DNA of 21,887 bases from a virus. Its lineage: Duplodnaviria; Heunggongvirae; Uroviricota; Caudoviricetes. Shown here piece by piece: positions 9,001 through 12,000 of this stretch. Position 1 is the stretch's first letter; each line of letters begins with the position of its first letter. The position numbers were made by a program. The stretch lies in IMG/VR virus record IMGVR_UViG_2534681878_000037. One strand, written 5' to 3'.

Positions 9001-12000
9001 AGAAAATGTTGTCCGGCGTGCGCCACTGATCGCCCACTTCCTTCAGTTCATGGGCTGGTTTGTTCCGCAGTTCCACCAACGCCTGGCAATATTTATTACT
9101 CATTAAGCCCCCACGAAATTCCCTGACAGATACCACTCTTCACCCGATGCAGCGCGCTTGCTGCTTTTCCGTAAGCACCGCTCACGACGTGCCAGAAAAT
9201 TGTTTCGTTCTGGCTGGGAGTGGCTTTCACGGAATGCCGCCATCCACACCGTTGCAGCACGACGGTATAAGCCCCTGGACTCCAGTTCTTCAGCCTGGCG
9301 GGTCAGGCACAAAATCACACGGGGATCGTTAGTGCCGACATAGAAATTGCGCACAGGTCTGGTTTCACGAACTGGTTGTGGTTCCGGTTCCTGCGCTCTC
9401 TCAGTCAGGCGCGGGAAATGTCTGCGTGTATCTCCTTCACAACGGTGAGCCACACGCCCACTCTGACGTAACTTGCTTGCTGACTGCAGAACGCGCTGCC
9501 GTGAGTAACCTGTAAAAGCATCCGCAATGTCTCCGGAAGTACACCCCGGATGGGCTTCAATGAATTTCTGAACGTCATTTAACAGACTCATGATCACCCC
9601 CTGAATCCTGCCGGGATCTGGCTGTAGTCCACGTTGTCGTAACTGGATTTGAAGTACGGGTCTTCGCGTTTTTCGGTGTACGTGCTGACGGACGGCGATA
9701 AGCGCAGGGAAAGCTCATCCCATTTTTCCCGCAGCTTCGACGGGCTGAGCACGTTACGGCACCAGAACGGATCGCGGCTGACGCGGCTGTACATCTCGCA
9801 GATTTGTTTGTGAGTACGACCATCCTGCACACACATAAGGCGAATTTCGTTTGCCCAGGCTGTCCAGTTCGGTTCTTTGGGACGAACCACCTCGCCGTCA
9901 CATTCGGCGGCCTGCTCGTACAGGGCGATGATTTTTTTCCAGAGCCACTGTGCGCAGGTCAAATCATCCTGCGTTCCCCACTGGCGCTTTTTAGGGCTGA
10001 ATACAACCGCATCAGGATGGCGAGTTAAAAACTCCTGTTCAGCCGTCTGCGTGTCCGGTTGCGAAGCGTCCGGACGAGAAGTTTTTTTATCTGACGGATC
10101 ATGTTTTGATTTTACTGACGGATCCCCGCCAGATTCTGACGGGTGAAAACCCGCTTTTTTGCCAGATTTCGACGCATCAAATTTTGACTGGTCAGATTTT
10201 GATGCGTCAGATTTTGACGGGTCAGAATCTGACAGTTGAGAAAATGCCGCTGCCTGAAGCTTCGCAACGTTAAGCTGATAAACATTCGACGCATTGCGGT
10301 TACCCTGGCGACGCGCCTTACGCGTTAACCAGCCTTCTGCTTCCAGCCGTGCGATAGCCGTTCTGACGGTGCTCATCCCCGCGCCAATCTGGCGGGCAAT
10401 GGTTTCAATTGATGGCCAGCACACACCTTCGTCATTACTGAAATCAGCCAGGCGGGCCATAATTGCCACGCTGGATAACTTCATGCCTGACGCAGCGCAA
10501 CCATCCCATACATAGCCGGTTAATTTAGTGCTCATGACCGACCTCTATTTCCCTGAATTTACGACGAAACTGTTCGAGCGGGCTGAAGCACTCATGCTCA
10601 TAGCCTTCGCGGAGGTAGATAACCCGTTGTGTTTCCGGTTCCCAACGAATGACTCTGACGGGCACTCCGTAGTGATCTTTGAACCAGCGGTTAACTTGTT
10701 GCAAAGGACTGTCTCCTTCTGCCGGTTGAAATCACCCACAGCCCACTCTGCAAAGCTGTGGGTTACAATTTCCCTGTCACCTGGTACATTCACCGCATAG
10801 CAATACTCCACCTTCGCTTTTCCACCCGGTACAGGAAGCGCAATCAGTTGCGAGCGACGGTAGTGTGTTGTTAAACTGTTCATGCGTTAGTTTCTCCACA
10901 ACCAGAAGCAATCGACGCCACGACGCCCGGAGCTGCACACTCGCGGGCGTTACTCTTTTCCGGCGCACAAAAAACACGAAATAACAGTGTTAAATGCTCC
11001 TGCCACTTCGCCATTACTTGGTAGCTGTTCTCTTCGATTTGCTCACGCTCAGCCTGGTCAATAACTCCATCAGCAGTTGCCTTGCGTAAGTACTGGGAAT
11101 GCTTGCCAATCCATTCTATTGACTCCATCAGCCGCTGATTAATGTCACCATTGTCAATGTCATCAATGTCCACCAGCGGCACAAACACCCCATTACTACG
11201 ACGCGCTATCGCATCCGTTACATGCCTGGTACCACTGGCATCCTGTAAAACCATGGCCCACTCAAGTGGAAAAATTTGATCCCCACCGCTACGCAGTCTG
11301 TTATGCAATTGATCTTTCGCTGGGGTGATATCATCAGATTTATACAAACCAAGAATTTCCGCTGCTTCCTCATAGCCATGAGGTAAATCAGCAATCGTTC
11401 TTCGTATTGCTGCCACCAGCCATGCTGGTTGCTTATCAACTTTCCATTCAGGTTCTTTACCCACGGTTCATTCCTCGTTTCTGTGGTTACGTTTACGCAG
11501 TTGAACCGCTAACTTTTGAATAGCACTCAGGTAATCCATCATTTGGATTGGGGTAAATATCAGGACGCAGTTCATGAGGGGTCACGGACCAGTTTCCCAA
11601 CTCACAAAGTTGTAAAACCCGTTCTGACGGGACTTGATTGTTAATTACCCAATTGGCGACGGATTGAGTGGACTTAAAACCAAAGCGACGGGCTACTTCA
11701 GATAAAGACTTTCCCGCAGCCTTTACTGCTTTCTCTGTGTAGTTTTGAGATGACATACCTTTCTCCTCTGAAATTCAGAGGGATGATGCTACTTAAAATA
11801 GCAAATTGCAACTACTTAAAATAGAAATGACTAGCGTGTGTGATGTGAGTAATCTTCTACCTATGGTAGAAGAACAGAAGTATCCAGATTTCGCCAAGAG
11901 ACTAAACGAATTGATGACAATCAAAGGAATCTCTGTCACTCAACTCAAAAGTCTTGTGGGCGTTACATATGAAATGGCTCGTCGATACACAATCGGCGCA

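Follow-up and report, generated by a model that had tools for sequence, protein, structure and literature searches.

Where does replication of a Shiga toxin (Stx) 1a-converting prophage begin when no gene for a lambda P-like helicase loader accompanies its initiator, and how could the host helicase reach that site? The question is raised by IMGVR_UViG_2534681878_000037, a caudoviricete DNA of 21,887 nucleotides (nt), analysed at its full length and called here the window, in which an initiator gene carries an array of short repeats, or iterons, within its own coding sequence. The reading proposed here, to which we assign a probability of about 0.8, is that positions 10077-10233 constitute the theta-type origin of this prophage, built on the plan of phage lambda and placed inside the part of the initiator gene that codes for an interdomain linker. 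A probable prophage origin at the array had been put forward in an original prediction made from the DNA sequence; it is supported by the O-like initiator, the dyad symmetry of the repeats, an A/T-rich neighbouring stretch, conservation at the DNA level and co-variation of the repeats with the N-domain of the initiator. All coordinates refer to the 21.9-kilobase window, the iteron-bearing gene lies on the minus strand and its repeats are read on the coding strand.

Iterons inside the initiator gene

Several searches recovered the array. Tandem Repeats Finder reported a period of 15 base pairs (bp) at 10163-10226, with 4.3 copies and 77% matches, or alternatively a period of 30 bp with 85% matches. 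A repeat search returned six copies starting at 10127, 10160, 10175, 10190, 10205 and 10220 (start-to-start distances of 33, 15, 15, 15 and 15 bp), together with two copies of TTTAyCTGACGGATC at 10086 and 10110, 24 bp apart. The consensus CAGATTTTGACGGGT, scanned with at most three mismatches, matched six times in the window, every time inside 10130-10231, where 0.79 matches were expected by chance; six matches were reached in none of 100 shuffles. By these searches the repeats are real and non-random, as had been claimed for this O-like gene. No second array of the iteron kind was found elsewhere in the window by Tandem Repeats Finder or by the consensus scan.

Each iteron is a 13-bp imperfect palindrome, GTCArAwTCTGAC, completed by 2 bp (Table 1). 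The earlier description of six to eight regularly spaced repeats of 15-16 bp is thereby narrowed to six 13-bp dyads. The 15-bp period holds for the five tandem iterons, the sixth being 33 bp away, and the two leftmost members of the former count (10091-10124) are GATCCGTCAG boxes, which have just the half-site CCGTCAG in common with the dyads and form a separate conserved element. Iteron 1 is a perfect dyad and iteron 5 the most degenerate of the tandem five. The six dyads occupy 10128-10233, corresponding to nt 303-408 of the gene and to amino acids (aa) 101-136 of its product.

The iterons are followed, in the coding direction, by an A-rich stretch whose A-rich strand is the coding strand and which contains both boxes. 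No 40-mer of the gene is richer in A+T than positions 10077-10116 (72.5%), next to which, at 10125, the least stable 50-mer begins (composition and nearest-neighbour stability). The GATC boxes in the A-rich stretch are a candidate DNA-unwinding or host-factor element; both oriC and P1 oriR are known to have unwinding elements rich in GATC, a parallel that serves as a lead only. DnaA boxes as part of the origin, in the style of iteron plasmids, were ruled out, none standing beside the iterons: no TTATCCACA-like site with at most one mismatch occurs within 9600-10880, and in the window as a whole such sites are about as frequent as chance predicts. The promoter scan returned no promoter-like site inside the origin.

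The product of the gene is matched over its full length by PHROG 391, 'replication initiation O-like' (E 1.3e-134, aa 1-313 against positions 1-298 of a 298-position profile). In AlphaFold2 models, a winged helix-turn-helix domain (aa 1-98, with Pfam HTH_36 at aa 23-70) is joined to a confidently modelled helical C-domain of the lambda O type (aa ~186-280) by a linker that is predicted to be disordered (aa ~102-166, predicted local distance difference test, pLDDT, ~30). The DNA of the proposed origin encodes this linker, where the original prediction had placed the repeats, as in lambda ori. A tail of low pLDDT (aa ~281-313), ending SQIPAGFRG, resembles the C-terminus of the host primosomal protein DnaT. 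Homology to the C-domain of lambda O was detected by tblastn (aa 131-277, 35% identity, E 3e-18) and by blastp (29% identity over 210 aa, E 1.5e-24). The N-domain resembles, by structure match, the dimeric winged-helix regulators of the MarR/ArsR type. PF04492 (Phage_rep_O), to which lambda O itself scores 5.7e-36, is absent from the matches of the initiator, which are to HTH_36 and other winged-helix families instead.

The arrangement can be compared point by point with that of lambda. Like lambda ori, the proposed origin is embedded in the initiator gene, where it separates the segments for the DNA-binding domain and the C-terminal domain, and it consists, in identical order, of dyad-symmetric direct repeats and then a stretch that is A-rich on the coding strand. 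The C-domains are homologous and the initiator gene comes after cro- and cII-like genes in a rightward operon. The N-domains differ, being of the PF04492 family in lambda and of the HTH_36 family in the window. Lambda has four iterons of ~18-19 bp, ~20-24 bp apart, whereas the window has six 13-bp dyads, five in tandem and one apart, and GATC-containing boxes are found in its origin. Lambda O ends in a W/acidic tail (...NTDWIYGVDL) and is accompanied by a P gene, whereas the window initiator has a DnaT-like tail and no P gene. A palindrome situated to the right of the lambda A/T-rich region, CGTCAGAGAATTCTGGCG (locus L175, 1561-1578), has both half-sites as in CGTCAGAATCTGGCG of the window (10126-10140), with a centre of 4 nt instead of 1 nt; this likeness to iteron 6 may reflect a shared ancestral origin element, or chance.

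Constraint on the DNA of the proposed origin

Homologues were compared at two distances. The diverse sample consisted of 80 genome loci sharing the lambda-O-type C-domain; relatives on viral contigs were near-identical and of no use for divergence tests (80 such copies hold 5 to 8 matches to the dyad pattern per locus). For the codon comparison 23 diverged genes of one N-domain family were used, with 49-63% identity between the N-domains. The commonest codon at conserved residues had a share of 0.87 in aa 101-153 and of 0.55 elsewhere (Mann-Whitney p 1.3e-10). Serine was encoded by TCA or TCT in 85% of cases in aa 101-153 versus 24% elsewhere, and within aligned repeat units its codons were nearly always TCA, then TCT. 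Both in the codon comparison and in the DNA alignment, conservation is highest at the GATC boxes, whose codons GAT CCG TCA are 96-100% identical. The boxes are confined to the N-domain family of the window protein, irrespective of the C-terminal tail. The AAA AAA codons of the spacer between iterons 5 and 6 are 100% conserved.

An alignment of seven diverged genes at the DNA level gave a similar picture. The core of iteron 6, CAGAATCTGG, and the motif GATCCG..AGTAAA.TCAA are invariant, and the A and T tracts of the spacer are kept in all seven, phiP27 included. The spacer of phiP27 has lost 1 nt, which shifts the reading frame of iteron 6, the peptide FDPSDSG being replaced by LTLQNLD; the iteron 6 DNA (TTTTGACCCTTCAGAATCTGG) and its spacing of ~32-33 bp are retained despite this change of frame. 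The constraint on the putative origin stretch is thus exerted on the DNA, beyond the encoded peptide. The A6 and T4 tracts of the spacer form a possible intrinsic bend. The same spacer contains a terminator-like hairpin, CGGGTGAAAACCCG followed by T6 (10140-10153, plus strand), antisense to the initiator gene, which, unlike the two tracts, is not conserved in relatives.

The repeats also vary together with the N-domain. The sequence of the iterons changes with the N-domain variant: it is TCAA-N3-TTGA in the Rac-like variant L010 and TCArAATyTGA in variant L013, and the E. coli variant L012 has different iterons again, GTCCAGAATCTGGAC, yet an identical spacing of 15, 15, 15, 15 and 33 bp. N-domain and repeats move jointly onto other C-domains, for instance in YeP1 and phiP27, while unrelated N-domains on a like C-domain have arrays of their own with periods of 12 or 21-24 bp. 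At most of the 80 genome loci a repeat array stands immediately upstream of the C-domain. This co-variation with N-domain type across homologues lends indirect support to the predicted binding of the iterons by the N-domain.

Intragenic arrays also occur in initiators of unrelated type that carry a DnaT-like tail. The initiator gene of Ayreon/Stx2a_WGPS2 contains ~4.7 copies with a period of 21-24 bp (L007, 2543-2647), and that of the Klebsiella phage ST405-OXA48phi1.2 ~7 copies with a period of 22 bp (L009, 2713-2872). Replication type 'Eru6' has Stx2a_WGPS2 as its reference phage. Among homologues of the initiator, three natural deletion variants (P0015, P0017 and P0019, 274-287 aa) have lost most or all of the tandem iterons and probably belong to origin-defective cryptic prophages.

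The DnaT-like tail and a proposed helicase route

The proposed origin would function as follows. Dimers of the N-domain would bind the six dyads and form a complex like the O-some of lambda, to whose shape the A6/T4 spacer may contribute a bend. This complex would strain and open the adjoining A-rich and GATC-box region, probably assisted, as in lambda, by transcription that would run from the immunity region through the origin. The tail of the initiator (~20-33 residues, ...DYSQIPAGFRG) would then recruit the host DnaB-DnaC complex, most simply via DnaC. The last step is the weakest.

The need for such a step arises from the gene content of the module. As the original prediction stated, the gene downstream of the initiator is neither a lambda P nor a DnaC-like loader; it is a PerC-like gene with a winged helix, and homology searches found no P, DnaC or DnaB homologue anywhere in the window. 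Between the C-terminus of the initiator, NVDYSQIPAGFRG, and that of E. coli K-12 DnaT, RDVNTVSEPDSQIPPGFRG, 8 of the 9 final residues match, and P0022, a family member that ends in RCVNHISEPDTEIPPGFRG, shares 14 of 20 positions with DnaT (E 9e-8). When a profile of C-domain and tail was compared with the PDB, DnaT chains ranked first (6aep, 2ru8, 9zbt_D), end to end but over the last 33 residues only. The whole initiator retrieved by sequence only MarR-type winged helices from the PDB and no DnaT, the link with DnaT requiring direct comparison and the C-terminal profile. The similarity probably escapes Pfam-based annotation because the Pfam model of DnaT ends at residue 154. The C-terminus of DnaT is a highly flexible tail of 20 residues (PMC5778457), and the ~20 residues shared with the initiator stand at the extreme C-terminus of both proteins. 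Otherwise the two proteins differ: DnaT has no sequence-specific DNA-binding domain and works at forks with PriA and PriB, and its three-helix domain (PF17948) was not detected in the window initiator by Pfam or profile search.

Tail type and neighbouring gene are associated among the 80 genome loci. P homologues follow the lambda-O-type C-domain with overlapping stop and start codons; one is next in ~35 of 39 cases where the tail is of the W/acidic, lambda-O-like class, and in none of 19 where the tail ends in GFR, a DnaC-like gene being next in two of these 19. The association of tail class with partner has a Fisher p of 3e-10, obtained with a crude regular expression that placed two EGWRGML tails in the DnaT-like class. 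A strict rule by which a DnaT-like tail means no loader gene was rejected, since it is broken by the DnaC-like gene next in L010, L124 and L126. A third class of tail on lambda-O-type C-domains is an extension of ~75 aa (...VERDEAFTRIIGSRSKP...RRM.DF.GR.AW..IW...), present in 13 of the 80 loci (L105, L107, L110, L111, L131-L133, L136, L138, L149, L151, L161 and L167) with neither a P-like nor a DnaC-like gene next, and also in L005 (phage YeP1).

The same DnaT-like tail is found on unrelated initiators, those of phage Ayreon, of Stx2a_WGPS2 and of one Klebsiella phage, and on YdaU of the K-12 Rac prophage. The C-terminal 80 aa of YdaU are DnaT-like (40% identity, E 9e-9, ending ...NTVSLPDSAIPPGFRG). 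YdaU is, like the window initiator, a replication-region protein with a DnaT-like tail, encoded near the immunity region in an operon in which YdaS and YdaT precede it. It differs in its DUF1376 N-domain, in a longer DnaT-like region, in being followed by YdaV and in that no repeat array was found in its gene. With YdaU followed by the DnaC-like YdaV (L176, 1620-3230), the prophage has a counterpart of the host operon of dnaT and dnaC. The DnaT motif has also been described in DopC-DopE, a domesticated pair resembling lambda O and P, in which DopC joins an HTH_36 N-domain to the C-terminal motif of DnaT (Brezellec et al. 2017, PMC5509034). DopC differs from the window initiator in being chromosomal, in having a P-like partner and in lacking iterons (PMC5509034).

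By comparison of these proteins, the tail may be a portable, partner-specific adaptor, which in the window would stand where lambda O has its P-binding tail. That this tail and the P-binding tails exclude each other argues indirectly for a role in helicase delivery, and the DnaC-like genes that accompany it, in modules of the Rac type as in the dnaT-dnaC operon of the host, point, again indirectly, to DnaC as the target. That the ~20 residues common to DnaT, YdaU and several unrelated initiators form a portable motif docking DnaB-DnaC, most simply via DnaC, is nevertheless advanced only tentatively, at somewhat less than even odds.

A number of points count against the scheme as a whole or against its parts. 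No experiment on this origin or on that of a close relative was found in the literature, and neither the SfIV paper (PMC3851460) nor two papers on Stx phages of the Eru types describe an origin. The A/T-rich stretch is merely moderate, ranking between the 95th and 99th percentiles of the window. Alignment within the repeats is ambiguous, and gene conversion between units could inflate codon identity. The match of the tail is short, with E-values of only 0.05-0.4 against the whole PDB, and the tail does occur together with a phage DnaC-like gene in the Rac-like L010 and in L124 and L126. A contact between DnaT and DnaC has never been shown although their genes are adjacent (PMC5778457), the recruiter of DnaB/DnaC proposed in a 2026 preprimosome paper is the N-domain of DnaT and not its tail (PMC13377028), and no statement of tail function was found in the literature on the DnaT tail and 'initiator-solo' modules.

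The points that concern the tail leave room for another last step, in which the origin is as proposed while the tail binds PriA or PriB, replication being started through a PriA-type primosome, or only mediates self-assembly of the initiator, the helicase arriving by a different route. We regard this as possible, though less likely than not; against it stand the exclusion between this tail and P-binding tails, an argument for helicase delivery, and the occurrence of the tail beside DnaC-like genes in modules of the Rac type and in the host operon.

A far less probable reading takes the dyads as sites at which the winged-helix protein acts in regulation (operator or autoregulatory) or in incompatibility or exclusion; the protein would be mainly a transcription factor and the true origin would lie elsewhere. 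The fold of the N-domain, close to that of MarR/ArsR-type repressors, is compatible with it, intragenic sites could act as roadblocks, and in RefSeq the gene is named merely 'helix-turn-helix domain-containing protein'. Such a reading is opposed by the homology of the C-domain to lambda O and the P homologues next to it in relatives, by strong PHROG matches that are initiators, by the position and order of the elements, which are those of lambda ori, and by the lack of any other array of the iteron kind in the window.

The least probable reading, that the array is a coding tandem repeat and nothing else, a Ser/Lys/Asp-rich disordered linker grown by slippage with no role in cis, would account for the regular S-K-S-D-x pentapeptide that the tandem units encode in the predicted disordered linker, for a unit number that varies between homologues (protein lengths differ in 5-aa steps) as slippage would give, and for the variants with few or no units (P0015, P0017, P0019), but it is very improbable in view of a codon choice nearly fixed in genes whose N-domains have diverged so far, units that are all palindromic, the conservation of iteron 6 in a different frame in phiP27, a repeat sequence that tracks N-domain type and the strongest conservation in the parts that are not tandem, i.e. 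the 33-bp spacing and the GATC boxes.

Relatives, neighbouring genes and implications

The coordinates of the features are collected in Table 1. Over 3700-11800 the window is 100% identical to the Stx1a prophage of E. coli O157 strain FDAARGOS_293 (NZ_CP022050.2). The genes on the minus strand follow each other in the order Cro/YdaS-like, CII/YmfL-like, YmfM-like, initiator, PerC-like, Dam methylase, LexA-DNA-binding-domain protein, RusA and KilA-N.

Table 1. Positions of the proposed origin elements, the initiator gene and neighbouring genes in the window
Feature	Position	Strand	Basis or remark
Initiator gene, 313 aa	9594-10535	-	phrog_391, Pfam HTH_36, AlphaFold2 models
Five tandem iterons, 15-bp period	10161-10233	-	Repeat searches, dyad analysis
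Iterons 1-5	10221-10233, 10206-10218, 10191-10203, 10176-10188, 10161-10173	-	Dyad analysis
Spacer between iterons 5 and 6, A6 tract and T4 tract (GGCAAAAAAGCGGGTTTTCACC, coding strand)	10141-10160	-	DNA alignment, codon comparison
Iteron 6 (GTCAGAATCTGGC)	10128-10140	-	33 bp from iteron 5
Two GATCCGTCAG boxes, one Dam GATC site each	10115-10124, 10091-10100	-	In A-rich stretch 10077-10124
Shiga toxin 1a operon	3742-4977	-	stxA 4021-4977, 318 aa, Pfam RIP; stxB-sized open reading frame, 89 aa, 3742-4011
Dam-type N6-adenine methyltransferase gene, same operon	8450-9136	-	Pfam Dam 1e-45
PerC-like gene, N-terminal winged helix, YfdN-like	9103-9591	-	Pfam PerC 7.8e-9, MarR_2 3e-4; phrog_1324 'transcriptional activator'
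YmfM-like gene	10545-10883	-	Pfam, NCBIfam, PHROG
CII/YmfL-like gene	10880-11464	-	Pfam, NCBIfam, PHROG
Cro/YdaS-like gene	11493-11756	-	Pfam, NCBIfam, PHROG
S24 repressor gene	11806-12567	divergent	Pfam

The ATG of the PerC-like gene is at 9591, 2 nt past the stop codon of the initiator gene (the listed open reading frame is 9103-9597). A PerC-like protein acting as obligatory partner or loader was considered and rejected: it has no loader signature, and the gene is absent from many related modules, not following the initiator in L004, in L012 or at many of the genome loci. The phage Dam methylase, encoded in the same operon, could methylate the GATC boxes of the origin, and the two Dam sites of the boxes together with the module's own methylase suggest methylation control. 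The methylase is an optional part of the module, SfIV having no such gene (PMC3851460).

Further from the origin, a 108-aa protein encoded in the replication/nin region (8127-8453, minus strand) is a LexA DNA-binding domain with no S24 protease domain attached. Such a protein could sit on SOS boxes uncleavably and is of possible interest for the induction of Stx prophages. An esterase gene of the nanS-p type is present at 2103-3242. An element of the IS3 family with the two-frame layout of IS629/IS1203 (orfA 13758-14084; orfB 14081-14971, with rve integrase domains; plus strand) directly follows a gene for a ParA-like ATPase (12802-13752, plus strand), whose end may have been altered by the insertion.

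The module is not confined to this prophage. Shigella phages SfII and SfIV, coliphage mEp460 and others carry the same module, some of whose genes bear the e14/CPS-53-type names YmfL, YmfM and YfdN in phage annotations; DNA identity is 97-99% through the initiator, PerC-like and YmfL/YmfM genes and through the methylase gene of those that have one. In those records the initiator is called 'replication protein O' or 'primosomal protein', and among the matches listed neither an origin nor iterons are annotated. Relative to those phages, the module is found here in an Stx1a prophage of E. coli O157. Relatives are spread across Enterobacterales, with at least 596 viral contigs and 2370 protein clusters. 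In kind the proposed origin is an ordinary one of the lambda type, and its initiator family is already annotated as O-like or 'primosomal' in near-identical phages. No description of the origin of the module or of its helicase route was found in the SfIV paper (PMC3851460) or in two papers on the replication of non-lambdoid Stx phages.

Phage replication raises the copy number of stx and the output of toxin. About the replication proteins of Stx phages with non-lambda replication regions nothing was known (PMC8951638), and with the proposed origin at 10077-10233 and a named initiator one such module now has a map that can be tested. The association of tail type with partner gene suggests that, by trading a short tail, initiators change the route by which the helicase is recruited, and it provides a way into the function of the DnaT tail. 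If the tail does dock DnaB-DnaC, phage initiators with such a tail would do without a loader gene, since they would imitate the host restart primosome in its last step; the DnaT tail would thereby gain a function, and the long-sought link between DnaT and DnaB/DnaC would be found in it.

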